Below the pieces are notes generated by a model that was not told the DNA's origin, ran no database searches, and saw nothing but the letters and a program-made list of their open reading frames with translations. Positions 6,253-32,666 of a stretch of 64,000 nt of DNA are shown one piece after another. The stretch covers positions 18,880 to 82,879 of the forward strand of contig PIYN01000008.1 of assembly GCA_003601775.1 (NCBI GenBank). The letters are read 5' to 3'. The stretch's first letter is position 1, and every line of letters begins with the position of its first letter. This stretch comes from Candidatus Bathyarchaeota archaeon. Lineage in GTDB: Archaea > Thermoproteota > Bathyarchaeia > TCS64 > PIYN01. Both the position numbers and the translations under genes were made by a program.

Positions 6253-6305
6253 TTAACCTGTCCCCTCTGGACTACTATATTCCACTCTGTCCTCAAGCTC
6301 TTCGA

Positions 6306-7016
6306 TTACTCAGATCCTGCAGATCTCTCCCTCGAGAGCCTCATGGCCTCCTCGAACCACTTACTCACGATCTTGGGGGAGATCCCCAGCTTCGTGCTCA
6401 GGTCCTCCGGCGATATCTTCAGGAGATCCGGGACCTTCTCCAGGCCCAACTCCTTAAGCCTCTCGGCCATCGTCGGTCCTATGCCCTTCACCTCCCTCAG
6501 ATCCGGTGCCAGCGCATGTTCCAACCTCTCCTGCATCCTCTTCAGCCTGGCGTTCAGCCTATCCCTCTCTCTGGTCAGGGCCTCGACCTGGGCTCTGAGC
6601 TCCTCGTTCAGCCTCCGCGCCTCCTTCAGGTCTTCGGCCATCTTCTTCGTCGTCTTGAAGAGGCTTTCATGTATCTTTGACATGACCTTCTCCATCTCAT
6701 CAAGGCGGGAGTCCAGTTCCAGAGTCCCTGACGTGGATTCCAGGTACTTCTCATACGCCGAGGCCCCACACCCCAGGATGAGGAGCCCGGCGAAGAGGAG
6801 GAGTACATAGGGGATCCCTCCAGCCGTCGCCTCGAAGACTGGGTGGATGGAGTAGCCCTTGGTGCTCCAGTATACTATGTCGCCGAGCCAGGTGATGAAC
6901 CCTACAATCCCCGACGTGAGGCAGATCCACTTGAGGAGCTCCAGGCCAGGGACGAGAGGCTCGCCCCTATTCTTCCTCATTTCTCCCTTCTGTTCCTCTC
7001 CACTCTCTTCCGTCAT
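6306..7016 (-). CDS. Membrane protein with two TM helices, a coiled coil and a C-terminal helix-hairpin-helix domain
   Basis: Hydrophobic segments LLKWICLTSGIVGFITWLGDIVYW and IPYVLLLFAGLLILGCGASAY. A heptad-like region follows (EARRLNEELRAQVEALTRERDRLNARLKRMQERLE). The HhH reads LREVKGIGPTMAERLKELGLEKVPDLLKISPEDL. Confidence 0.7.
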   Translation of the reverse strand: MTEESGEEQKGEMRKNRGEPLVPGLELLKWICLTSGIVGFITWLGDIVYWSTKGYSIHPVFEATAGGIPYVLLLFAGLLILGCGASAYEKYLESTSGTLELDSRLDEMEKVMSKIHESLFKTTKKMAEDLKEARRLNEELRAQVEALTRERDRLNARLKRMQERLEHALAPDLREVKGIGPTMAERLKELGLEKVPDLLKISPEDLSTKLGISPKIVSKWFEEAMRLSRERSAGSE

Positions 7017-7136
7017 ATCACTACACCCAATCAGTCATCGCTTTTGTTAGAAAATGAATAAACTTACTAAAGAGGTTTGTGGAAGAACGCATAGGTCTGT
7101 CTACAGGACAATCTGGTTCTCGTCTCTGCACGTCAC

Positions 7137-7144
7137 TTATATCT
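7137..7144 (+). promoter_or_regulatory. TATA-box-like element upstream of the NurA-like/HerA-like operon
   Basis: ttatatct lies 34-41 nt upstream of the ATG at 7178 in an AT-rich divergent intergenic region. Confidence 0.3.
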
Positions 7145-7177
7145 TTATGATTGTGTTAAAGAGATAAGGAAGATTAG

Positions 7178-9106
7178 ATGCCTGCCGATAGTGGCTCCCC
7201 CTCAGAGCCTTCCTCTTTACCACCGAGCCTCAAGGCGGTCTGCGAGGGCCTCAGGGCGAGGGCGGCTGAGAGGATCTCCGACTACTCGCTTCGCTTAAGC
7301 CGGGTCAACGCCCTCTACGATGGGGTGCTACGTCATCTCATCGTCTCGAACTTCAGCACGGCAGAGGCCTATGAGACGGCCCTCAAGTTCTTTGGGGGCG
7401 AGGAGGTGCGCTTCGCCGGGATCGATGGGACGAGGTACTCATCCCCCTTGATGGACCTCGTCATCTTCTTCGGAGGGGCCTACGCCTCGATGGGGACCAT
7501 AAGGTTTCGGGCAGATGGTCCCCCTGAGATAGAGTACGAGGATAACTTCTTGGATAAGGGGGTTAGCATCTCGACGGTCGTCCCCCTCTTCATCAACGAG
7601 ATCCCCGAGGTCGACCAGACCTACTTCAGCTTCGACCCCGAGGGGACCCCCGTCTCCCATCCCCTCGCCGACCAGTGGTTCGTCGACAACTCCATGATCG
7701 CCAACTCAATGATGACCTTCGCGGAGTACTACCTCGCCTACAGGCTGATCACGGACCCCAGTAGGAGGGTGAAGGTCCTCTTCATGGACCGCTCCCTCTC
7801 AGGCGAGAGGACGAGCCTCCTCTACGATACCTCGAAGCCCTCCATCTGGAAGAGGTCCTCCTCCCTCCTCGGCTTCGAGGTGGAGGGGGTGAAGATAGAC
7901 GAGAGGGACCTGGCCTACGGGAGGTACTACGTGGTGAACGAGGAGCTGAACCTCCCCCCTCCCAGGGGGGACTACCTCCCCTACGCCATCATCCACCTCC
8001 TCGAGGGGGAGGGACCCCTGGACCTCAGGGGGATCTGCGAGAGACTTGGAATAGAGGAGCTTGACCGTGTCTCCAGGGTCGAGAGGTACCTGAAGAGCTC
8101 TAAGATCCTCAGGAGGTACCTAGATCGGAGGGGGATCTTCTACAGCCTGAAGCCGAGGTATAGGACGACGTGGAGGAGGCTGAGGAGGGCCGTTGAGGTA
8201 ATAGGGGAGCGACTCTTCTCCTACCGAGGGGGAGAGGGAGAGAAGGGCCCTGTGATGAGGATCAAGAGCGGTGGGAGGATGAAGTGGCTGACCACCCTGG
8301 ACCTCTCCTTCCTCACCCTCTTCTGCCTCCAGATGATCGTTGAGGAGTGCTGGAGGCGGAGGGTCCTCCTCATAGGCCTGACCAAGGACACGGCGGCGAG
8401 GGACTTCAAGCGCCAGTTCCTTCCCATCATGGCGAATGAGGGGCTCCTCAAGGGTGAGATTAAGCCACGGAACCTGGAGGCGCTCCCGAACACCGATCGG
8501 ATGATCCTCCAGGTCGTCTCGATGAGCAGGGCGGAGTCCATCTCCGTCCCCTGGAGCCTCGTGGAGTACGACTCCTGCTTCAAGACCCTCATCCCAGACA
8601 GGGGGCGGAGGAAGGGCTACGTCAAGGGGGCGAGGAGGAACAAGATCAGCTTGGAGAGGCTCTTCCTGAAGAGCTACATCCAGCTCTCCCAGGCCGAGTC
8701 CAACCCAAGGCTCCGGAGCAACGTCCTCCTCATGGACCGCCTCATCTACCCGGAGTTTGACCTCGCCGAGGAGACGCTGGTGCGGTTCTGGAACGAGTTC
8801 AGCGGCGCGAAGGAGCCCGTGGAGGTCATCCTCTACCGGGACAACTCCGTGAGGAACCCCCTTCAGAACCTCGTGATGGTGATCCTCAGCTCCATGGTCT
8901 GTCCCAGCATCCCAGAGGTCTTCGGCCACAACAAGCCCCTCTTCATAGCCGATAAGATCGCTAAGTGGAACTACGGCTACTTCAAGAGGATCGTCGACGG
9001 GACAAGGAACTGGATCCTCAATAACCGTAAATTGAAGGAGTTCCTGTTCTATATGGGAAGCTTCAGGGAGAGGAGGAGTCTGTTTGAAGCAGCGAGGAGA
9101 GGATGA
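7178..9106 (+). CDS. NurA-domain-like nuclease, enlarged (642 aa) by a central winged-helix-like insertion
   Basis: Ordered NurA-type landmarks: FAGIDGT, MTFAEYY, VLFMDRSLSGE, LIGLTKDTAARD and GHNKPLFIADKIAKW. The insertion reads YAIIHLLEGEGPLDLRGICERLGIEELDRVSRVERYLKSSKIL. The gene overlaps the downstream HerA-like gene by 23 nt. Confidence 0.65.
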   Translation: MPADSGSPSEPSSLPPSLKAVCEGLRARAAERISDYSLRLSRVNALYDGVLRHLIVSNFSTAEAYETALKFFGGEEVRFAGIDGTRYSSPLMDLVIFFGGAYASMGTIRFRADGPPEIEYEDNFLDKGVSISTVVPLFINEIPEVDQTYFSFDPEGTPVSHPLADQWFVDNSMIANSMMTFAEYYLAYRLITDPSRRVKVLFMDRSLSGERTSLLYDTSKPSIWKRSSSLLGFEVEGVKIDERDLAYGRYYVVNEELNLPPPRGDYLPYAIIHLLEGEGPLDLRGICERLGIEELDRVSRVERYLKSSKILRRYLDRRGIFYSLKPRYRTTWRRLRRAVEVIGERLFSYRGGEGEKGPVMRIKSGGRMKWLTTLDLSFLTLFCLQMIVEECWRRRVLLIGLTKDTAARDFKRQFLPIMANEGLLKGEIKPRNLEALPNTDRMILQVVSMSRAESISVPWSLVEYDSCFKTLIPDRGRRKGYVKGARRNKISLERLFLKSYIQLSQAESNPRLRSNVLLMDRLIYPEFDLAEETLVRFWNEFSGAKEPVEVILYRDNSVRNPLQNLVMVILSSMVCPSIPEVFGHNKPLFIADKIAKWNYGYFKRIVDGTRNWILNNRKLKEFLFYMGSFRERRSLFEAARRG

Positions 9107-10955
9107 GAGGTTCTTCACGGACTTCGGCGGGAGGTTCCATGGAAGGCTCTCCGCCGTGGTACCCGCCCGGAGGGGGCTGGGGGAGGCGACCCAGACGACG
9201 GGGACGGCTGCCCAGTGCAGGTGCCTCATAAAGGTGGAGTACCACCCGGACCTGATGGGGCTGCTGGAGGAGGGGATGCTCGTCGCCGTCAAGAACTTCA
9301 AGCCGAGGACTCGGGAGGGCGGGGAGAGGTACACCCTGATGGAGGTCTCCAGGGTCTGGCCCATCCACTATGGGCTGAGCGGCCTCTCCGACCAGAGCTA
9401 CTACCCGATGCAGTTCGAGATCATACAGCAGTCCGAGAGCGACTGGCGGAGGGAGGACTCCTCGGTGATGATGATCGAGATGACGGCCGTCCCCATCAAC
9501 TACGACCTCATCATCTACCCCGATAGGGAGGAGCCCGAGTTCAGGAAGGGGTTCTCCTACCCCATCCCGGCGAGCGAGGCCCACATCCTCAACGAGAGGA
9601 TGATCCACCTGATGTACAACAAGAGCATCATCGAGAAGCTCGGGATCAGGATGGAGGAGCTGACCGAGGAGGCGAGGGGCAACCCCCGACTCGGCGTTAT
9701 CAAGATGTTCGAGGCGGAGGAGTCGAGGATACCTCTCTTCATAGACTTCGAGAACCTCGTCCGCTACCACTTCGGCGTCTTCGCCTTCACGGGAGGGGGG
9801 AAGAGCAACCTGCTAAGCAACATCCTGAGGAGGATCCTCTACCACACCCCCGACATAAAGGTCGTCCTCTTCGACATCAGCTGCGAGTACCCCTTCCTCC
9901 TCCTCGACATCCTCACGGACCCCAGCATCCCATCGAAGGTCATCCTCGAGAACAGGGTCGAGTCAGCCGAGCAGCTCTTCAACACCACTGTGAAGCCGAG
10001 GAGATACGAGGACGACAAACGTGCCCTCAAGGGCTATGAGCTCCTCCTCGAGGAGGGGCGGGTCGGGTTCTACACAAAGCCCAGGTACGTCGTCCCCACA
10101 TACGGCGACTTCCTCAGCCAGCTGAAGGCCCAGAGAGGGCAGAGCTCGGATAGGCCGCACTACCTCGACGCCATAAACGTCATAGAGAGGGCAATCTTGG
10201 GGTACATGGAGGAACACGGCCTCACGGAGGATATGAGGGTGGACGAGGCCTTCGTGAGGTACATCGATGGGGTGGCGACCGAGGCCGTGAATCAGTTCAG
10301 GGTCTCGGAGAAGAGCGGCCTCTACTCCTGGGCGACGACCAGGTCCTCCCTCCTCGAGGTCATAAAGATGAGCAGGAAGGAGAAGGCTGAGAGGAGGGGC
10401 GGCTACAGCGTGGAGCAGATACTGGACCTCCTGGAGGGGGAGGAGCGCCTCATCTGCATCTCGATAGCCGACGCGGTCACCATCAAGGAGCTCGTCATAC
10501 AGCTCACGAGGGTGATGCTCGCGAGGAGGAAGAGGCGCTTCCAGGTGAAGCCCTACATCCTCTTCGTCTTCGACGAGGCACAGGAGTTCATACCCGACAT
10601 GCAGAGCAGCGGGGTCGACCGCAGGTGCTCCAAGCAGGTCGAGACCCTCCTGAGGCAGGGGAGGAAGTACGGCCTCGGAGGGTGCGTCGCGACCCAGCGC
10701 CTCGCCTACCTCAACACCAACGCCCTACAGCAGCTCCACACCTACTTCATCGGAACCCTCCCCAGGCCCTACGACCGCAGCCTCATCAGCAGCACCTTCA
10801 TGATCGACGAGGGGATCCTCGAGAGGACCCTCGAGTTCGCCCCAGGAGAGTGGCTCCTCTCCAGCTTCATCGCCACGGGGATGGAGAACGTCCCCATCTT
10901 CCTTAGGGCCGACAACGCGGAGGACGAGCTGGAGGCCTTCCTCTCAAGGCTTTAG
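9084..10955 (+). CDS. HerA/FtsK-superfamily ATPase (DUF87-like)
   Basis: Walker A FAFTGGGKSN, Walker B YILFVFDEAQEF, and RQGRKYGLGGCVATQRLAYLN typical of HerA. An N-terminal barrel-like region reads LIKVEYHPDLMGLLEEGMLVAVKNF. The start is uncertain (TTG at 9084 or in-frame GTG at 9156). Confidence 0.85.
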   Translation: MKQRGEDERFFTDFGGRFHGRLSAVVPARRGLGEATQTTGTAAQCRCLIKVEYHPDLMGLLEEGMLVAVKNFKPRTREGGERYTLMEVSRVWPIHYGLSGLSDQSYYPMQFEIIQQSESDWRREDSSVMMIEMTAVPINYDLIIYPDREEPEFRKGFSYPIPASEAHILNERMIHLMYNKSIIEKLGIRMEELTEEARGNPRLGVIKMFEAEESRIPLFIDFENLVRYHFGVFAFTGGGKSNLLSNILRRILYHTPDIKVVLFDISCEYPFLLLDILTDPSIPSKVILENRVESAEQLFNTTVKPRRYEDDKRALKGYELLLEEGRVGFYTKPRYVVPTYGDFLSQLKAQRGQSSDRPHYLDAINVIERAILGYMEEHGLTEDMRVDEAFVRYIDGVATEAVNQFRVSEKSGLYSWATTRSSLLEVIKMSRKEKAERRGGYSVEQILDLLEGEERLICISIADAVTIKELVIQLTRVMLARRKRRFQVKPYILFVFDEAQEFIPDMQSSGVDRRCSKQVETLLRQGRKYGLGGCVATQRLAYLNTNALQQLHTYFIGTLPRPYDRSLISSTFMIDEGILERTLEFAPGEWLLSSFIATGMENVPIFLRADNAEDELEAFLSRL

Positions 10956-10967
10956 GCGGGAGGGGCC

Positions 10968-12026
10968 GTGAGGAGGCCGAAGGATCGGGACTACGTCGAG
11001 ACCGTGGAGGGCCTCCTCTTCTGCCTCATCGGATACCTCCACCCCCCATGGGGCTACACGGCCTACCTGAAGTACGTGCCGAGGCCGGGGGGGAAGTGGT
11101 CGAGGGGCGGGGTCCAATATCAGCGAACCCTCTCCTACTACCACGTGACCCAAGTCGAGGAGACCTTCAAGATCCTCAGGGAGCACTACCCCCAGTACCT
11201 CTTCCACTGCCCCATCCGAAACATAACGATCTCGATAGTCCCGAGGGAGAGGGTGAGGAGGTACTACATCCCAGAGGACCGCCTCCAAGAGATCCTGAGG
11301 GGTGGGGGAGACGAACTCGAGGAGGAGGTGAGATGCCTCGTCGAACTCCTCTCAGACCTCTCAGGCGTCCCCGCGAGGAGCTTCGGCGTGACGGGCTCCA
11401 TCCTCCTGGGGACCCATAACCCCCGCTTCTCGGACATAGACCTCACGATCCTGGGGACAGCGGCCTCCCAGAGGGTGAAGGAGGCCTTGATAGAGGCGAG
11501 GAGGGAGGGGAACACACCCATCAGGGGGTTGACGCCGGGGAGGGCGGAGAAATGGATAGAGGAGAGGATGAGGAGGTTCCCCCTGAGACGAGAGGAGGCT
11601 CGACTCTTCCTCGAGCGGAGGTGGAACTACGGCTACTTCGGCGACAGGTACTTCTCCATCCACCCCATCAGGCTTGACGAGGAGATCAGGGAGGAGTACG
11701 GAGAGAGGCGGTACACACCCCTCGGCATCGCGAAGGGGAGCTGCACCATCACCTCCACAAGAGAGGCGATCTTCCTTCCATCCATATACAGGGTGGGAGA
11801 AGTGGAGACAGAGGGATGGAAGGACCTGGACATCAGGGAGGTCGTCTCCTATGAGGGACTATACACCGATGTACTCCAGGAGGGCGAGCGGGCTAAGTTC
11901 AAGGGACTCATCGAGCGGGTCGAGACGGGGGGCGGGGAGCCCTATCAACGAGTCCTCATAGGGAGCGCGAGGTTGAAAGGAAGAGACTACATCAAGCCCC
12001 TGGTACCTAAGGGAGGAGGCCCTTAA
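10968..12026 (+). CDS. Pol-beta-superfamily nucleotidyltransferase with a C-terminal OB-fold-like region
   Basis: NTase signature FGVTGSILLGTHNPRFSDIDLTILG (GS...DxD). The C-terminal beta-rich segment is GSCTITSTREAIFLPSIYRVGEVE...RAKFKGLIERVE. It starts 12 nt after the HerA-like stop. Confidence 0.72.
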   Translation: MRRPKDRDYVETVEGLLFCLIGYLHPPWGYTAYLKYVPRPGGKWSRGGVQYQRTLSYYHVTQVEETFKILREHYPQYLFHCPIRNITISIVPRERVRRYYIPEDRLQEILRGGGDELEEEVRCLVELLSDLSGVPARSFGVTGSILLGTHNPRFSDIDLTILGTAASQRVKEALIEARREGNTPIRGLTPGRAEKWIEERMRRFPLRREEARLFLERRWNYGYFGDRYFSIHPIRLDEEIREEYGERRYTPLGIAKGSCTITSTREAIFLPSIYRVGEVETEGWKDLDIREVVSYEGLYTDVLQEGERAKFKGLIERVETGGGEPYQRVLIGSARLKGRDYIKPLVPKGGGP

Positions 12027-12111
12027 GAGGGTCCATCGATGGGTTAACTATAAGGGTATTATATCATCCCACGTTTAGACGAGGTTTAACGAAAGGGGTC
12101 GACCCGAAGGG

Positions 12112-13443
12112 ATGGAGAGAACCTACAAGGAAACGTTAAAGTGGTTGTTCGGCCTCAGGAGGTTCGGCTCCAAGCCGGGACTAAAGAACATACGTTATCT
12201 CCTGAGTCGGATCGGCGACCCCCACGAGAGGTTCAAATCCGTCCACGTGACGGGCACAAACGGAAAGGGCTCCACAACGGCCATGGTGGCATCGATCCTC
12301 CAGGCCGAGGGCTACAAGGTCGGGAGGTTCACCTCACCCCACCTCTCAAGCTTCACCGAGCGCATAGTCGTTAATGGAAGGCAGATCCCACCTGGAGATG
12401 TTGTCAGGATCGTCGAGGAGATCAAGCCCGTCATAGGGGAGATGGTGAGGACCCCAGGACTTAGGCACCCCACCTTCTTCGAGGTCGTCACAGCCATCGC
12501 CTTCAAGTACTTCGCCGAGCAGGGAGTGGACTTCGCCTCCGTAGAGGTGGGGATGGGAGGGAAACTCGACGCCACGAATGTTATCCACTCCCTCGTCTCC
12601 GTGATAACGAACGTCAGCCTTGAGCACACAGAGGTCCTGGGGAAGACCGTCCTCGAGATCGCCGAGAAGAAGGCGGGGATCATCAAAGAAGGCGGGGTCC
12701 TCATAACGGCTACAAAGAACGACGAAGTCTACAACCTATTCAAGGAGGTCTGCAGGGAGAAGCACTCTAGGATGTTCCGGGTCGGCAGGGACATAAGGTT
12801 CAAGAAGCTGCACTCAAGCCTCGAGGGGCAGAGCTTCCAGCTGAAGGGTCTGGTGAACGACTTCGACGAGCTATTCATCCCCCTAATCGGGGATCATCAG
12901 CTGCTGAACGCGGCCTGCGCCGTCGGGGCGGTCGAGGCGTTGAGGTTCCACGGCATCACTATATCGAGGGGGGCGATAGAGGAGGGGCTGAGGAGGGTGA
13001 GATGGCCAGGGAGGCTGGAGATAGTGCAGAGGCACCCGTTAGTTGTGCTGGACTGTGCGAAGGACGCCGAGGCGGCTAAGGCCGTGAAGGAGGCTCTGCT
13101 GAAGGAGTTCACCTACGACAGGTTGATCGCCGTCGTGAGCATCTCCTCCGATAAGAACATCCCCGCTATGATCGAGCAGTTCGCGCAGGTGGCGGATCTC
13201 TTCGTGATAACGGCGCACAAGGTCATGGGGCGAGCGGCCAAGCCATCCCGCATCGCCGAGGAGGTGAAGAAGCAACTCAAGCCCTATGAGATAGTGCCGG
13301 ACGTGAAGGAGGCCGTCCGGAGGGCGATGGAACTGGTCGGCCAAGGGGACATGGTGATCGTCGTGGGCTCTGTATTCCTCGTGGGAGAGGCGAGAGAACT
13401 ATGGTTCAGGCCAACCGTAGAGGAACCTGACACACCAGATTGA
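12112..13443 (+). CDS. folC: Folylpolyglutamate synthase / dihydrofolate synthase family (Mur ligase fold)
   Basis: 443 aa. P-loop HVTGTNGKGSTTAM followed by GRFTSPHL, and ITNVSLEHTEVLG. This is the FolC architecture. Confidence 0.85.
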   Translation: MERTYKETLKWLFGLRRFGSKPGLKNIRYLLSRIGDPHERFKSVHVTGTNGKGSTTAMVASILQAEGYKVGRFTSPHLSSFTERIVVNGRQIPPGDVVRIVEEIKPVIGEMVRTPGLRHPTFFEVVTAIAFKYFAEQGVDFASVEVGMGGKLDATNVIHSLVSVITNVSLEHTEVLGKTVLEIAEKKAGIIKEGGVLITATKNDEVYNLFKEVCREKHSRMFRVGRDIRFKKLHSSLEGQSFQLKGLVNDFDELFIPLIGDHQLLNAACAVGAVEALRFHGITISRGAIEEGLRRVRWPGRLEIVQRHPLVVLDCAKDAEAAKAVKEALLKEFTYDRLIAVVSISSDKNIPAMIEQFAQVADLFVITAHKVMGRAAKPSRIAEEVKKQLKPYEIVPDVKEAVRRAMELVGQGDMVIVVGSVFLVGEARELWFRPTVEEPDTPD

Positions 13444-13516
13444 AACGCAGTTAAACTGGAGGGAATGGTAACCGGGGGCATGCTCCTAAAAGGGGGTGGA
13501 AGAGCCTGAATCGGCG

Positions 13517-14218
13517 CTACGACTCCTCCATGAGATCTGGGAAGAGGGTCCGCACGACGAGGATCAGGGGGGTGGCGATCACCGTTGATAGAATCGTGAG
13601 GAGGGTCCTCTCGACCGCGGAGACCGGGAGGATGCCTATGAAGAAGAGGGGAGGTGGGTTGACGAGGAAGATGAAGATGAGATTACCGAGCATATGCCCG
13701 GCCATCGTGGCCGGGAAACTGCAGAGCGCCACCCCCAGGGAAAGCCTCCCCTTATCCCCGTTCTGAATATAATCCGCGATCCTCCCCCTGAAGAGAAGGA
13801 CTATGGCAAGGCCCAAGAGGTGTAGGACAGGGTAATACGCAGGATCACGGCCCATCCGCATCCAATACCAACCTGCTATCAAGATAGCCAAGACCGCGGC
13901 AGCCAGCATCCAACCCCTGACCCCGAAGACATAGCGTCTGCCCAGCGCCGCCGCCACAAAGGCCGAGACCAAGGCAAGGGGGGTGAAGAACATCCCGAAA
14001 CCCCCACCAGCCAAGGTCTTACCGACGATGGCCCCAAGGAAGGCGGTCAGGGGGCCGAGGACCGGTCCAAGGATGAGGCCATAACCCATCTCCAACGCTC
14101 TGACTATTGGGATAGTACCTTGAGCCCCTATCATCGGGAATCCAGGCAGAAAATTACCAAGGGCGTAGACTGCGGCCAAGACGGCCATCAACGTGACCTC
14201 CTTCACCTCTAACCTCAT
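13517..14218 (-). CDS. Polytopic membrane protein, ECF-transporter S-component-like
   Basis: 233 aa with about 6 TM segments. Gly-rich TM region LILGPVLGPLTAFLGAIVGKTLAGGG. No ATPase or T component is adjacent. Confidence 0.55.
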   Translation of the reverse strand: MRLEVKEVTLMAVLAAVYALGNFLPGFPMIGAQGTIPIVRALEMGYGLILGPVLGPLTAFLGAIVGKTLAGGGFGMFFTPLALVSAFVAAALGRRYVFGVRGWMLAAAVLAILIAGWYWMRMGRDPAYYPVLHLLGLAIVLLFRGRIADYIQNGDKGRLSLGVALCSFPATMAGHMLGNLIFIFLVNPPPLFFIGILPVSAVERTLLTILSTVIATPLILVVRTLFPDLMEES

Positions 14219-14447
14219 CTAAATCCCTCGACGCGTACTGCCATCGATAGAATGAAAAGGAAGATGGATTTAACCTTTTTAGGCTCTTACACCATCTCCT
14301 TCTCAAAACATACAATCAGACCAAGTAGAGGGGAACTCCGACCCCTGTAACAGCAGATAGGAAACCGCTTATCAAAACTTCTCTTTGAATTGAAATGCAA
14401 AATCTTAAAAACATCGCTAAAAACCTTCCAATGAGACCACAGGGAGG

Positions 14448-15026
14448 GTGGTATCAATCATGGGCGGCGAGGGGAGACGGACGACGCAGATCGCAGGTAC
14501 CTCGATCCTCGCAGCCCTTGTCGTGGTCTTCGACTATACCCTCAAATTCTCGGGTCTGAAGATCCCCTTCCCATGGCTCCCCTTCCTCAAGTTCGACTTC
14601 ACCGGCGTCCCCATCGCCCTCTCACTACTGCTCTACGGCCTACCCTCCGGGGCCGCCACCTCCCTCATCGCCTGCCTCGCCATCCTTGCCCGCAGCGGCG
14701 ACCTCGTGGGCGCCACCATGAAGGCAGTGGCTGAGTTCTCCACGGTCCTGGGTATCGCGGCAGGTCTATACCTAACGAGACGATACAGAAAGATCATCTC
14801 CGCCCTCATCGGCATCGCACTCCGGATCGCCACGATGAGCGCGATGAACCTGGTAATCCTCCCGATCTATTATGGACTTCCATATAACGTTGTGATCGCC
14901 CTGCTACCGATGATAGGGGTATTCAACGCGATTCAAGGGGCGATAACGGTGGGTGTCGGATACCTCCTCTATGAGGCGTACATCCGCAGAGTCCCAGCCC
15001 ACCCTACTTTGCTATCAAAGGATTAG
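14448..15026 (+). CDS. Polytopic membrane protein, ECF-transporter S-component-like
   Basis: 192 aa. KFDFTGVPIALSLLLYGLPSGAATS resembles the S-component loop/TM3 region. An alternative ATG start lies at 14460. Confidence 0.58.
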   Translation: MVSIMGGEGRRTTQIAGTSILAALVVVFDYTLKFSGLKIPFPWLPFLKFDFTGVPIALSLLLYGLPSGAATSLIACLAILARSGDLVGATMKAVAEFSTVLGIAAGLYLTRRYRKIISALIGIALRIATMSAMNLVILPIYYGLPYNVVIALLPMIGVFNAIQGAITVGVGYLLYEAYIRRVPAHPTLLSKD

Positions 15027-15781
15027 AGGAAGAGGTCCCTCTCCCGCGGCCTCACCAGGTCCTTCGCAGTAGAGGTCTCAGACCTGGGATAATGATAGCC
15101 ACGTATAATCGCCACCGGGATCCCCTCATCGGCCTGCCCGATGACGAGTTCTGCCGCCGAGGCGAGTTCATCGGCGATGGCCGTCTGCTTAACCCTCAAC
15201 CTATACCCGAAGAGGTCCCGCTCCCCACGCCTATCCCTGATGGCGCTGAGCCCATGGAGCCCGATGGCGACGTTCACCTCCCCCATCCTATGGGCGCGAC
15301 CATGGGTGTCACAGATAATGACCGCTACCTCCTTGCCTGTGAGCGAGCATATGCGTTCCTTGATCCTCCTCGCGGAGGCGTCGGGATCCTCAGGAAGAAG
15401 CGCCACAACATCCTCCCCCGGAACATTCGACTTATCGACGCCACAATTTGCGCAGACGAACCCCTGCCTCGTCTCCGTGATGAGTAGGCGAGGGCCCATG
15501 CGTCTGATGGCCCTCGAGTCCCTCAGTATCACCTCCACCAACCTCGGATCCTTCTTCGTGAAGGAGGCGATGTTCTCAGCAACCTTCGAGGGCCTGACCT
15601 TCCTCAGGTCAACCGTCCTCCCCTCGGCACGGGAGACGATGATATGCGAAACAACGATGACATCCCCCTCCTCGATCGACAAACCCTGCGCCCTCACAGC
15701 CTCCAATATCAGAGAAGCCACATCATCCCCCGCCTCAACGATAGGAAACCCCTCAACCCCGATAATCTCAACCTTCACCAT
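15023..15781 (-). CDS. cofE: Coenzyme F420-0:L-glutamate ligase
   Basis: 252 aa. Contains GFPIVEAGDDVASLI, GDVIVVSHIIVSRAEGR and GFVCANCGVDKSNVPG, the CofE family pattern. Confidence 0.85.
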   Translation of the reverse strand: MVKVEIIGVEGFPIVEAGDDVASLILEAVRAQGLSIEEGDVIVVSHIIVSRAEGRTVDLRKVRPSKVAENIASFTKKDPRLVEVILRDSRAIRRMGPRLLITETRQGFVCANCGVDKSNVPGEDVVALLPEDPDASARRIKERICSLTGKEVAVIICDTHGRAHRMGEVNVAIGLHGLSAIRDRRGERDLFGYRLRVKQTAIADELASAAELVIGQADEGIPVAIIRGYHYPRSETSTAKDLVRPRERDLFL

Positions 15782-16124: not shown

Positions 16125-16202
16125 TGGTGCGGCCGCCGGGATTTGAACCCGGGTCGTCGGCGTGGAAGGCCGGTATCCTGGTCCAGGCTAGACTACGGCC
16201 GC
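16125..16202 (-). tRNA. tRNA-Gly (anticodon UCC), CCA encoded
   Basis: The reverse complement is GCGGCCGTAGTCTAGCCTGGACCAGGATACCGGCCTTCCACGCCGACGACCCGGGTTCAAATCCCGGCGGCCGCACCA. It has a 7-bp acceptor stem, T-arm CCGGG/TTCAAAT/CCCGG and anticodon loop CTTCCAC. Confidence 0.92.
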
Positions 16203-23897: not shown

Positions 23898-24695
23898 TTA
23901 GATTAATCGTAGAATTATCATGAAGATGCCGAGAAGGATGAACATCGCCCCCACGACCTTGGAGAAGGTCTCCTCGTCGGCGAGGTTGGCGAAGACGGTG
24001 CCCCCGTAGCCGCCAAGGATCGTCCCGAGGCCTATGACGGCGCCCGCGAGGAGGTTGATGTTCCCCTGTAGGGCATACCCTACCGTCCCTGAGGCCGCCG
24101 TAATGGCCATGATGAGGGTCGAGGTCCCCACGGCCATGTGGGTTGGGTAGTTGAGGAGGAAGAGGAGGACGAGGAGGATGAGGAGCCCCCCTCCTGCCCC
24201 GAAGATCCCCCCATTCAGGCCTATGAGGAACCCCAGGAGTAGCGGCACCAACCTCCTCGCCCAGGAGGACTTGAGGTTCGCCCTTCCCCGGATCCTCTCA
24301 AGGTACTCCTCCCTCCGCGCCCCTCCCTTCCACATACCCACACCCGAGAGGATGAGCATGAGGCCGAAGGCCCAGCGGAGGCCGAGGTCCGGTATAAACT
24401 GGCAGAAGAGGGCCCCGACCTGTGCGCCGGCTATGGATCCAAGGGCCATGAGGGCCCCGGGCCTTAGGTCGACGTTCCCGTGTCGGTGGTAGCCGTAGGC
24501 GACTGCGAGGGAGGCGATGACGTCCACGAGGAGGCTCGTTCCGATGGAGGTGTGGATGGGGAAGCCCTGGAGGAGGTTGAGGGCCGGGACGATGATCATC
24601 ACCCCGCTCGCGCCGACGAGGCTCGTGACGAGGCCTGCGACGACGCCGATGAGGACCAAGGAGAGAAGTAAAATAGGATCTAACCCCACTTTCAT
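23898..24695 (-). CDS. TauE/SafE-family anion (sulfite) exporter membrane protein
   Basis: 265 aa with about 8 TM segments. Has duplicated VAGLVTSLVGASGVMIIVPAL / GLNGGIFGAGGGLLIL motifs. Confidence 0.82.
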   Translation of the reverse strand: MKVGLDPILLLSLVLIGVVAGLVTSLVGASGVMIIVPALNLLQGFPIHTSIGTSLLVDVIASLAVAYGYHRHGNVDLRPGALMALGSIAGAQVGALFCQFIPDLGLRWAFGLMLILSGVGMWKGGARREEYLERIRGRANLKSSWARRLVPLLLGFLIGLNGGIFGAGGGLLILLVLLFLLNYPTHMAVGTSTLIMAITAASGTVGYALQGNINLLAGAVIGLGTILGGYGGTVFANLADEETFSKVVGAMFILLGIFMIILRLI

Positions 24696-25430
24696 TAGCC
24701 TCCGATATTAAGACCTAAATTATTACAAGCCTTTAAACCCCCACTCCAGAAAAACTCAAAGTTTAAAGTTTTTAAGTTTTTGGATAAAACCTTTTAAATA
24801 TTTGTAGAAGGGTCCATATAGTTTATGTAACAACATAATGTGCCAAATTAATGTTATAACTACAAAAAGGAAAGTTACATTTTGTTCACGTAACGACATT
24901 TCTTTAATATCGCTCAAAATAAAATTCTCAATTAGAGGAGAAGGATATCTAGGTATCTGGAAACGATCTTCTACATACGCTATTAAAGGATAAGTCCATA
25001 AAGCACGTTTAATAAAAAATATGAAACCAATATTTAAAAAGAGACTCATTATGCTATAAAATATATATCGATTTTTTGAATTACTTAATAAAATTTCTAT
25101 ATAACAAATAAAAAGACCCAGTGCCGCAACAGTCCATTGAAGTTGTCTATTTAATTGAAGATTTATAAACGAATAAGCGTCATCCTTACTTTCTATCTCT
25201 TTCATTATCGTGGAATTCTCTTGTGGCCATCCGCGTGAGAATCTAAATGAGATAGATATCGAAACCAACAAACAGATTGTTATAACACATAATTTTCTAA
25301 CATTCATCTTAAAATCAATTGAATTATTATTGTTCATTTATATATCTTTTCTGTTCTTGAAAATTGCACAGAGTTATTTTTACCATTTTATAAACAATTA
25401 ACATAATTTCTCCAGCTTTTAATCTTCTAT
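24696..25430. other. AT-rich compositional island (about 27-30% GC) inside >60% GC DNA
   Basis: One counted line (24781-24840) has 16/60 G+C. A flanking line (24181-24240) has 39/60. Confidence 0.85.
24756..25337 (-). CDS. ORFan membrane protein (193 aa) with strongly AT-biased codons
   Basis: A long ORF maintained in very AT-rich DNA. It has 4-5 hydrophobic segments (LCVITICLLVSISISF, WTVAALGLFICYIEILL, IFYSIMSLFLNIGFIFFI, VTFLFVVITLIWHIMLL). I do not recognise a family. Confidence 0.6.
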   Translation of the reverse strand: MNNNNSIDFKMNVRKLCVITICLLVSISISFRFSRGWPQENSTIMKEIESKDDAYSFINLQLNRQLQWTVAALGLFICYIEILLSNSKNRYIFYSIMSLFLNIGFIFFIKRALWTYPLIAYVEDRFQIPRYPSPLIENFILSDIKEMSLREQNVTFLFVVITLIWHIMLLHKLYGPFYKYLKGFIQKLKNFKL

Positions 25431-25930
25431 GGGAAGAAAGGGTTAATTCCTTTCGCTATAAACTCTGGTATCTGACTCACCCAGACGAGGAGCCAGAATC
25501 CTATCCAAGGGCTGAGTAGTCCCCCAAGATCGTCCTTGAGTCGTCGGCTGAAGAGTCTGGTCTTTGAGACGATGTAGGTCAGAGCGAGGATATGGCTCGC
25601 AAGGATGAAGTGGTGTATGTGGTACCCGCAGAGGTATAGCCTGAGCCTCAGGGGTGAGAGGTGGATGCCGGGCAGGGCGTCGGTGAGTAGGAGGGTGGGG
25701 ACGGCGAGGAGCCCCCCGAGGAGGGTGGAGCTGGACCTCAGCCTCCCCCTCCAGGACCATAGGATGTAGAGGGGGATGAGGACTATGACCGTGGCGTCCA
25801 GGCGGAGGGCCCAGGCCGTTGGCCAACTCCGGAGACTACAGGAGGCCATCAAGAGGAGTGGGAATAAGAGGTAGGGGAGGACCAGTAGGCTCTCTCTCAG
25901 CGATCTCATAACGTTCAGCTCTACTCTCAT
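25427..25930 (-). CDS. Hypothetical membrane protein
   Basis: 167 aa with 4-5 TM segments and native high-GC codon usage. No recognisable motif. Confidence 0.5.
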   Translation of the reverse strand: MRVELNVMRSLRESLLVLPYLLFPLLLMASCSLRSWPTAWALRLDATVIVLIPLYILWSWRGRLRSSSTLLGGLLAVPTLLLTDALPGIHLSPLRLRLYLCGYHIHHFILASHILALTYIVSKTRLFSRRLKDDLGGLLSPWIGFWLLVWVSQIPEFIAKGINPFFP

Positions 25931-26035
25931 TTGTCTCCCGCAGACAAAAACCTTGTGAGCAGTCTCTGGGCCCGGTCAAACGGACAGCTTGGTCGAGAGG
26001 GGGGAAAGGTAATATTGGGAGAGGGGGATTAGTGG

Positions 26036-32587: not shown

Positions 32588-32666
32588 GGGGCCGTGGTCC
32601 AGCTTGGTCTACGATCCGCGGCTCGGGCCCGCGGGGTCCCCGGTTCAAATCCGGGCGGCCCCACCA
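32588..32666 (+). tRNA. tRNA-Pro (anticodon CGG), CCA encoded
   Basis: GGGGCCGTGGTCCAGCTTGGTCTACGATCCGCGGCTCGGGCCCGCGGGGTCCCCGGTTCAAATCCGGGCGGCCCCACCA. It has a 7-bp acceptor stem, anticodon stem CGCGG/CCGCG, loop CTCGGGC with G37, and a TTCAAAT T-loop. Confidence 0.92.

Follow-up and report, generated by a model that had tools for sequence, protein, structure and literature searches.

A divergent NurA–HerA-type gene pair with a predicted winged-helix insertion in Bathyarchaeia and its modification-linked relatives

Profile searches, structure models and a comparison of gene order across genomes lead us to describe a HerA–NurA-type gene pair on a 64,000-nucleotide stretch from a Candidatus Bathyarchaeota archaeon (assembly GCA_003601775.1, contig PIYN01000008.1, positions 18,880 to 82,879 of the forward strand), hereafter called the window. 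HerA–NurA corresponds in archaea to the end-resection machines of bacteria and eukaryotes and is usually seen as a thermophile-specific partner of Mre11–Rad50. The window pair is an uncharacterised, divergent version of this known kind, in which gene 1 encodes a NurA-like protein with a winged helix-turn-helix (wHTH) insertion and gene 2 a HerA-class ATPase (Table 1). A first-pass annotation had joined the two to gene 3 just downstream, a predicted nucleotidyltransferase (NTase), as one three-gene module and a candidate for an undescribed defence system. Our survey shows that the conserved unit is the gene 1–gene 2 pair, a two-gene operon, and that gene 3 is its neighbour and not a component of it. 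We lean towards reading the pair as a vertically inherited machine for DNA-end processing in repair or recombination, which would work independently of any adjacent mre11–rad50.

Gene 1 is assigned to the NurA fold through its family

Judged by its relatives and by a structure model, gene 1 encodes a predicted nuclease of the NurA (RNase H-like) fold into which a winged helix is inserted. Taken alone, the protein matches nothing in Pfam (E <= 1), NCBIfam, PADLOC or the PDB sequences; with these direct profile and sequence searches empty, the assignment needed a family profile and a model of the fold. An exhaustive search places the protein in a family that forms about 360 clusters at 50% identity, with nearly all proteins about 600 aa long and identities as low as 25%, from which 65 diverse members were aligned (alignment A1). 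Pfam NurA (PF09376) is matched by 26 of these 65, with a best E of 2.8e-11, and the membership of gene 1 itself in PF09376 is transitive only, through homologues and the family profile. That profile matches Pyrococcus furiosus NurA (3tai, E 1.3e-3) via three colinear motif blocks, IDG, LxDxxL and G-x-x-PL-x-A-[H→D]-x-x-x-K, the second of which aligns with the ILMDGTL block of the P. furiosus protein. Alignment A1 was too diverse for pattern design and a scan of genome contigs with the single protein gave 3 loci; the sub-alignments A2, A3 and A4 were used as working queries instead.

The AlphaFold2 (AF2) model of gene 1, with a predicted local distance difference test score (pLDDT) of 92, points to the same fold: the top 10 PDB matches returned by Foldseek are all NurA structures, from Thermococcus kodakarensis, P. 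furiosus and Sulfolobus solfataricus, with probability 1.0 and E of 2e-7 to 9e-6. The template modelling (TM) scores are modest, 0.35–0.54 on the target, because of insertions in gene 1. Among the conserved positions in A1, G583 is invariant and D592 and K596 are kept in at least 90% of the members, the position of the NurA catalytic His being Asp (D592) throughout the family. The segment LIGLTKDTAARD corresponds to aa 398–409. Several observations bear on the insertion: the middle of the family profile matches HTH proteins of the Lrp/AsnC type (E 0.015–0.026), family members show scattered Pfam HTH matches, and Foldseek returns weaker MarR-type matches over this region (probability 0.72–0.89). 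The string quoted in the first-pass annotation as winged helix is located at aa 269–311. The earlier description of gene 1 as NurA-like with a central wHTH is thus borne out by the family Pfam matches, the family profile, the AF2 model and Foldseek; the profile search suggested there found no Pfam match for gene 1 itself, but did find PF09376 in 26 of its 65 relatives, alongside the uniform NurA matches of the model.

Gene 2 belongs to the HerA class

Gene 2 is, by its sequence matches, a predicted ATPase of the HerA/DUF87 class. It matches Pfam DUF87 (PF01935; E 3e-13, 50.8 bits against a cut-off of 23.2) as well as HerA chains in the PDB, and its best PADLOC model is HerA PDLC01055 (‘Type III coevolved’; E 1.5e-34, 118 bits, a partial match), which derives from a HerA family adjoining type III CRISPR loci (Shah et al., PMC6546367). 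The NCBIfam models for HerA in double-strand-break repair, NF040819 and NF040937, give it 40 and 25 bits where 970 and 800 are required, and those for anti-phage HerA, NF042943 and NF042944, give 40 and 32 bits where the thresholds are 800 and 850. Walker A (FAFTGGGKSN, aa 233–242), Walker B (aa 492–502) and the motif RQGRKYG...ATQRL (aa 524–540) are present, and the P-loop lies about 57–67 residues later than in three PDB HerA chains aligned across it. The assignment of gene 2 to the HerA class that had been made from motifs therefore holds up in Pfam, PADLOC, the PDB and, weakly, NCBIfam.

The pair is conserved and apparently stably placed across Bathyarchaeia

The survey of the window's own branch, A2, drew on one genome per GTDB species and yielded 292 tblastn-confirmed stretches, from the best 80 of which all counts for this branch are taken. 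These 80 come without exception from Bathyarchaeia or Thermoproteota, at 51–60% identity. Complete Bathyarchaeia genomes with the pair include CP070791.1 and OY970176.1. HerA was found by tblastn in 74 of the 80 loci and, with few exceptions, follows NurA directly, usually abutting or overlapping it; of the six loci lacking HerA, three have almost no contig remaining downstream, and the other three (L015, L016 and L052) have room downstream and no HerA. The same order, with HerA directly downstream of the NurA-like gene, is found in most of 242 loci across three branches of the family.

The only recurrent neighbour of the pair in this branch is a four-subunit pyruvate/2-oxoacid:ferredoxin oxidoreductase (POR) cluster, encoded on the opposite strand downstream of HerA in 38–47 of the 80 species (L009–L088), a recurrence that argues for a stable chromosomal position of the pair. 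Mean identity across 40 species is 72% for NurA and 78% for HerA, against 74% and 80% for the POR alpha and beta subunits. Searches of the IMG/VR viral contigs and the PLSDB plasmids turned up no relatives of the pair. In tblastn searches with representative proteins, no gene for DpdA, DUF6884 or a C5 methylase was detected beside the pair in any of the 80 Bathyarchaeia loci, and the whole 64-kb window gave none either.

Gene 3 is a neighbour from a separate archaeal family

Tight packing makes gene 3 a tempting third component, and we correct this over-reading here. Neither gene 3 nor the helix-hairpin-helix (HhH) gene and folC that flank the locus in the window occurs within 8 kb of the pair in any of the 80 Bathyarchaeia species loci (0/80), and gene 3 adjoins the pair in 0/162 loci of the other two branches, A3 and A4. 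Elsewhere, in four independently sampled contexts (L007, L008, L253 and L254), gene 3 has as neighbours a DRG-type GTPase, an ornithine carbamoyltransferase (OTCase) or an HhH protein, and no HerA or NurA. Its closest homologues, in L253 and L254 (71–76% identity), keep the same HhH and folC neighbours as the window and lack genes 1 and 2: L254 has the order HhH ... gene3 > folC > orf233 ... cofE, at 71–79% identity to the window, and in L253 gene 3 and the HhH gene adjoin each other directly in divergent orientation. These arrangements suggest that in the window the NurA–HerA pair lies between two old neighbours. We exclude gene 3 from the unit on the strength of the 0/80 and 0/162 counts and of its independent contexts; the three-gene module proposed earlier is not upheld, since the three families are not syntenic and gene 3 keeps unrelated company in other genomes.

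We therefore regard it as very improbable that all three genes form one system in which the NTase/OB protein (OB, oligonucleotide/oligosaccharide-binding) tails or marks nucleic-acid ends, or makes a signal, for HerA–NurA. What speaks for such a system is an abutment shared with one related lineage, and probable co-transcription. Gene 3 abuts HerA in the window and in L255 only, where 16 nt separate a gene 2 homologue (76% identity) from the gene 3 homologue (64% identity) downstream of it, so that the juxtaposition appears inherited within a small sub-clade. A ribosome-binding-site-like GAGGGG before the GTG start of gene 3 is conserved, and the stretch read at the 3' end of gene 2, ~56 nt long, showed no TATA-like element; given this and the 12-nt gap, genes 2 and 3 are probably co-transcribed in the window. 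Against such a system, the pair itself is split in the L255 lineage: L090, which carries an HhH-like gene and gene 1 (65% identity) and overlaps L255 at 96% nucleotide identity over 4.1 kb, belongs to a lineage in which ~9.6 kb of unrelated genes separate gene 1 from gene 2 (L090 778–2763; L255 8001–10940). In this lineage, the closest to the window, the intervening genes are a zinc-ribbon protein, a lysylphosphatidylglycerol (LPG) synthase, a major facilitator superfamily (MFS) transporter, an aldo-keto reductase and small open reading frames (ORFs).

Gene 3 is a conserved archaeal family in its own right, separate from the NurA–HerA pair. Its match to Pfam NTP_transf_2 (PF01909) is marginal, at 22.0 bits against a cut-off of 21, and many members of the family are labelled ‘predicted nucleotidyltransferase’ by JGI. 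The motifs GVTGSILLG (aa 140–148) and SDIDLTILG (aa 155–163) contain the residues G140, T142, G143, S144, D156 and D158, invariant in 35 homologues (G-x-TGS...SDxD). In the AF2 model (pLDDT 94.8) the top PDB matches from Foldseek cover only the C-terminal OB fold, with no NTase structure among them. The OB fold in the model agrees with the OB-like C-terminus previously read from the sequence, while for the NTase signature read there the Pfam match is marginal. A TiaS-like or CCA-adding identity was considered and rejected, there being no PDB match beyond the OB fold and no NCBIfam match. Distant paralogues at 27–30% identity occur at L007 3729–4727, L008 3717–4724 and L228 15101–17108, and some of these lie in tandem with the main copy or a few kb from it.

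A sister branch joins the pair to apparently interchangeable modification genes

The NurA-wHTH/HerA family has three branches: A2, to which the window belongs; its sister A4; and A3, which crosses domains. A crude midpoint-rooted neighbour-joining (NJ) tree groups A2 and A4 against A3. The A4 sample comprised 142 confirmed stretches, and its counts refer to the best 80. These are almost exclusively from Thermoproteota, besides a few unclassified or bacterium-labelled metagenome-assembled genomes (MAGs), and include Culexarchaeia, Methanomethylicia, Nitrososphaeria (Nitrosocaldus and Nitrososphaerales), other Bathyarchaeia, Brockarchaeota and Marsarchaeota. A HerA ORF is adjacent in 70/80, the neighbours are housekeeping genes such as thermosome, and the only modification gene that the DpdA, DUF6884 and C5-methylase queries detected is a C5 methylase beside the pair in one locus of the 80.

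Branch A3 is distributed patchily over Cyanobacteria, Chloroflexota, Armatimonadota, Latescibacterota, Patescibacteria, Aquificota, methanogens, Nitrosopumilus, DPANN and Asgard archaea, and occurs also in two Bathyarchaeia MAGs. HerA adjoins NurA in 77 of 82 loci, 20 of which hold the bare NurA–HerA pair. The others include same-strand operons with genes for a tRNA-guanine transglycosylase (TGT)-like protein and for DUF6884, in the orders DUF6884>NurA>HerA>TGT-like (10 loci), NurA>HerA>TGT (9 loci), NurA>HerA>TGT>DUF6884 (4 loci) and TGT>NurA>HerA>UvrD>PD-(D/E)XK (at least 5 loci); at ~10 loci the pair has a C5 DNA methylase beside it, sometimes joined by an HhH-GPD glycosylase. Genes for UvrD, PD-(D/E)XK nucleases and DEAD helicases are frequently close by. 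Profile scores identify the TGT-like gene as a genuine DpdA (NCBIfam NF041059: 427 bits, cut-off 200; PADLOC: E 1e-122), DUF6884 matches the PADLOC candidate PDC-M57A and, weakly, DpdC/YaaA (PMC11701544), and the A3 HerA matches PDLC01055 at full length with 311 bits. The DpdA/DUF6884–NurA–HerA operons look like Dpd-type (7-deazaguanine) restriction-modification with a NurA–HerA restriction arm, and their modification module seems to be exchangeable. The exchange of DNA-marking modules around an unvarying nuclease–translocase core is a hallmark of a restriction-modification-like system. In a literature search of incomplete coverage, we found no paper that links NurA–HerA with DpdA or treats this combination of modules, and none on the NurA-wHTH/HerA pair in Bathyarchaeia.

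Individual A3 loci document these layouts. Four-gene DUF6884/NurA-wHTH/HerA/DpdA operons occur at L092 6875–12284, L098 4740–10163 and L100 3206–8572, and similar layouts, with DUF6884 first or last, at L114, L127, L160, L162 and L167. Carriers of a DUF6884–NurA–HerA–DpdA operon include Oscillatoria sp. CS-180 and, at L100, Thermodesulfovibrio. A C5 methylase takes the place of DpdA/DUF6884 at L091 3461–10646, L093 6159–12139, L150 7953–13519 and L169 7956–13831; further C5 methylase loci are L139, L143, L145, L151, L152 and L154, and the arrangement is also seen in Culexmicrobium. In four of the ten listed loci of this L091–L169 set, an HhH-GPD glycosylase accompanies the C5 cytosine methylase. 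Six Latescibacterota loci (L116, L123, L125, L129, L131 and L134, ~6270–15300) read DpdA > NurA > HerA > UvrD-type helicase > PD-(D/E)XK nuclease; the DpdA of L125, ~580 aa, carries a fused N-terminal DUF6884/PDC-M57A-like domain, as do, judging by ORF length, those of the other five loci. One Bathyarchaeia MAG (CAZRCD01, binchicken_co262_240) contains both an A2-type pair (L028) and a DpdA/DUF6884-linked A3 pair (L133) as coexisting paralogues.

What the pair may do

The folds, the conserved motifs, the coupling of the two genes, the class-wide conservation, the housekeeping context without adjacent modification genes, the POR-like rate and the failure to find viral or plasmid relatives favour DNA-end processing, and we give cautious preference to this reading. 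We suggest that the two-gene operon would supply a HerA-type hexameric ATPase/translocase and a NurA-type nuclease with a winged-helix DNA-binding domain. By analogy with the solved HerA–NurA complexes, a NurA dimer would cap the HerA ring, and ATP-driven translocation would feed a DNA end into nuclease sites presumably formed by D83, E183 and D204, with D592 replacing the usual His, while the winged helix would add DNA recognition. Sequence comparison makes vertical inheritance of the pair's branch within Thermoproteota most likely, and several vertically inherited nurA–herA paralogue pairs per genome are on record in Thermoproteales (PMC3396285).

Several observations weigh against this reading. 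The pair is split, or HerA is non-adjacent, in a few lineages (L015, L016, L052 and L090), and the identities of the pair correlate only moderately with those of POR (Spearman ~0.5–0.6). A crude regex motif scan of the flanks of the 242 loci found no Rad50-like ORF, unlike the classical system, and returned two calcineurin-like ORFs only. The A3 sister branch, moreover, is patchy and embedded in operons with DNA-modification genes, which shows that a restriction-like role is within reach of the NurA-wHTH/HerA architecture.

This last point leads to the main alternative, possible if tentative, in which the pair is an immune effector whose role would stem from branch A3 or be common to both: a stand-alone restriction-like NurA-wHTH/HerA nuclease would degrade foreign DNA, with the wHTH reading modification or ends and the self-marking enzyme encoded elsewhere or unneeded. 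The patchiness of A3 across Cyanobacteria, Chloroflexota, Armatimonadota, Latescibacterota, Patescibacteria, methanogens, Nitrosopumilus and Asgard archaea, its tight operons with a true DpdA and DUF6884 or with a C5 methylase with or without HhH-GPD, the UvrD, PD-(D/E)XK and DEAD helicase genes often nearby, and the co-occurrence of both kinds of pair in one Bathyarchaeia MAG are consistent with such a role, as is the best PADLOC model of gene 2, which represents a HerA family whose first description had it co-evolving with type III CRISPR (PMC6546367). Against it stand the 0/80 window-clade loci with an adjacent modification gene and the lack of one in the whole window, a context of housekeeping genes and not of defence islands, and the scores of gene 2 far under what NCBIfam requires of an anti-phage HerA (40 bits, where the threshold is 800). 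As a rule, defence genes evolve fast and are patchily distributed; the window clade is taxonomically coherent and evolves about as slowly as the POR genes, and together with the housekeeping context this argues against the earlier proposal of an undescribed defence system. More speculative still, and in our judgement unlikely, is a broader view in which NurA-wHTH/HerA is the nuclease arm of restriction-modification-like systems with an interchangeable self-marking module, either DpdA plus DpdC-like DUF6884 or C5 methylase with HhH-GPD, and the window pair a relative, retained or domesticated, whose task of policing DNA would go beyond break repair and might include the degradation of foreign DNA that is linear or unmodified.

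At the other end, the pair could be the lineage's ordinary and sole herA/nurA end-resection machinery with Mre11–Rad50 encoded elsewhere, an explanation that we likewise hold to be doubtful. The NurA fold and HerA family assignments and the class-wide conservation in Bathyarchaeia fit it, and branch A4 includes Nitrosocaldus (L216), a genus that one paper lists with a HerA–NurA pair, Mre11 and Rad50 (PMC5797428); that pair may be of this family. It fits less well that gene 2 reaches only 25–40 bits against HerA equivalog cut-offs of 800–970, that gene 1 has no Pfam NurA match, an architecture ~200 aa larger with a wHTH and an Asp for the catalytic His, that the crude scan found no Rad50-like ORF near the pair in the 242 loci, and that Thermoproteales carry several nurA–herA paralogue pairs with different roles (PMC3396285).

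The consequences differ with the outcome. Our analysis defines a large uncharacterised NurA-wHTH/HerA family, one lineage of which most likely passed vertically across Bathyarchaeia, Nitrososphaeria and other Thermoproteota, groups that are abundant and mostly uncultured and whose recombination machinery is little studied. If the pair serves these archaea as resection engine, it would close a gap in archaeal DNA repair; if it functions like the DpdA- or methylase-linked sister clade, a repair machine would form the basis of a new type of modification-dependent immunity.

Layout of the locus and other features of the window

The coordinates of the locus are collected in Table 1. The three co-directional ORFs, the 23-nt overlap of genes 1 and 2 and the 12-nt gap between genes 2 and 3 in the window's ORF list lie exactly where the first-pass annotation had put them, and all the motifs that it quoted were located at the expected positions in the three proteins. 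Sequence searches returned 1062 homologues of gene 1, 1827 of gene 2 and 617 of gene 3, and with hundreds to thousands of full-length homologues each, the genes can be taken as real. The homologues that carry an organism name are almost all from Candidatus Bathyarchaeota or Bathyarchaeia, in agreement with the origin of the window. Several orthologues of gene 2 align starting at residue 1–3, which makes the TTG start codon at 9084 plausible.

Table 1. Positions, within the window, of the three genes, the upstream region and the landmarks of gene 1
Feature	Coordinates	Strand	Details
Gene 1 (NurA-like, wHTH insertion)	7178..9106	+	642 aa, ATG start
Gene 2 (HerA/FtsK-class ATPase, DUF87)	9084..10955	+	623 aa, TTG start
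Gene 3 (predicted nucleotidyltransferase + OB fold)	10968..12026	+	352 aa, GTG start
Divergent intergenic region with TATA-like element TTATAT (~7137-7143) upstream of gene 1	7017..7177	.	sequence reading; putative promoter
NurA motif I FAGIDGT, aa 79-85	7412..7432	+	D83 invariant in 65 members; aligns with IDGS of P. furiosus NurA
Motifs MTFAEYY, aa 179-185 (E183), and VLFMDRSLSGE, aa 200-210 (D204)	7712..7807	+	E183 and D204 invariant in 65 members
Predicted winged helix-turn-helix insertion, ~aa 262-326, inside the NurA fold	7961..8155	+	AF2 secondary structure: three helices + beta-hairpin
Invariant family-specific residues K403/D404, D440, D465, R521	8369..8746	+	65-member alignment; putative functional residues
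C-terminal NurA motif GHNKPLFIADKIAKW, aa 583-597, D592 in place of NurA catalytic His	8924..8968	+	aligns with GYLRPLQLAHHGVK of P. furiosus NurA

The flanks consist of glmS, an alpha/beta hydrolase, a coiled-coil/HhH protein and a FolC-type Mur ligase, which confirms the housekeeping surroundings (glmS, folC) described before. A Pfam scan of ten window ORFs, the largest included, identified two class I/II aminoacyl-tRNA synthetases, the phenylalanyl-tRNA synthetase PheRS, NrdD, FttA/aCPSF1, Cdc48 and other housekeeping genes. Neither these ten ORFs nor a motif scan revealed mre11 or rad50, in line with their reported absence from the window. The HhH protein, a conserved divergent neighbour of gene 3 (window 6306–7016, minus strand), has an N-terminal hydrophobic region, read from the translation, a coiled-coil-like middle and a C-terminal HhH_5 domain; with its counterparts at L253 6189–6872 and L254 3708–4391 it spans 227–236 aa, and such proteins are often found alongside a DRG-type GTPase.

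An Rfam scan of the window gave one tRNA only. A tRNA-Gly at 16125–16202 was called by both ARAGORN and the Rfam scan, and a 79-nt tRNA-Pro(CGG) at 32588–32666 (plus strand) is an ARAGORN call that falls below the Rfam tRNA gathering score. Two parts of the window, 1–2000 and 24001–26000, have ~49% G+C each, against ~60% for the remainder.

Comparison with known systems

The closest known relative of the pair is the archaeal HerA–NurA end-resection complex of S. solfataricus, P. furiosus and T. kodakarensis (2ygk, 3tai, 4d2i, 9x1l), with which it shares adjacent and translationally coupled genes for nuclease and ATPase. Gene 1 has in common with it the RNase H-like fold of NurA (Foldseek probability 1.0) and the colinear IDG, LxD and G-x-x-PL-x-A-x-x-x-K motifs, and gene 2 the HerA/DUF87 P-loop ATPase with its Walker A, Walker B and arginine motifs. 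In contrast, gene 1 has 642 aa where classical NurA has ~330–450 aa, a size owed to the winged-helix insertion and extra elements, and it differs further in the exchange of the catalytic His for Asp and in the additional invariant residues KD403/404, D440, D465 and R521. Gene 2 departs from classical HerA in the later position of its P-loop (~aa 233, ~57–67 residues further on) and lies far under the NCBIfam HerA equivalog cut-offs. Whereas the classical operon has the order herA–nurA–mre11–rad50, a Rad50-like gene adjoining the pair is missing throughout the crude scan of the 242 loci.

Extra, vertically inherited pairs unlinked to mre11–rad50 are likewise found as nurA–herA paralogues in Thermoproteales, among them the CRISPR type III nurA–csm6–herA cluster (Bernick 2012, PMC3396285; Shah 2018, PMC6546367). 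The best PADLOC model of gene 2 stems from that work, yet the match is partial (118 bits), and it is the A3 HerA that matches at full length (311 bits). Near the window pair we noted no cas genes, csm6 or CRISPR features, no search having been aimed specifically at CRISPR arrays.

The bacterial anti-phage HerA systems (Sir2–HerA/Nezha and DUF4297–HerA) and bacterial NurA–HerA (Deinococcus radiodurans, 7f6d) resemble the pair in joining a HerA-family ATPase to an effector encoded next to it. Unlike in the anti-phage systems, the effector of the pair is a predicted NurA-fold nuclease and not Sir2 or DUF4297, its HerA scores 32–40 bits with the HerA_antiphage models against cut-offs of 800–850, and its context is housekeeping. 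The HerA/FtsK plus TGT ‘BRC’ system is described with PglZ and BrxC-like parts and no mention of NurA (PMC12839542). With the Dpd 7-deazaguanine system (DpdA–K), finally, the likeness is confined to the A3 branch; the window is without DpdA and DpdC by tblastn. In A3, a true DpdA and a DpdC-like DUF6884 stand in one operon with the pair, and NurA plus HerA take the place of the classical restriction genes DpdD–K. We see in the DpdA- and methylase-linked sister operons a more novel lead than in the window pair itself.

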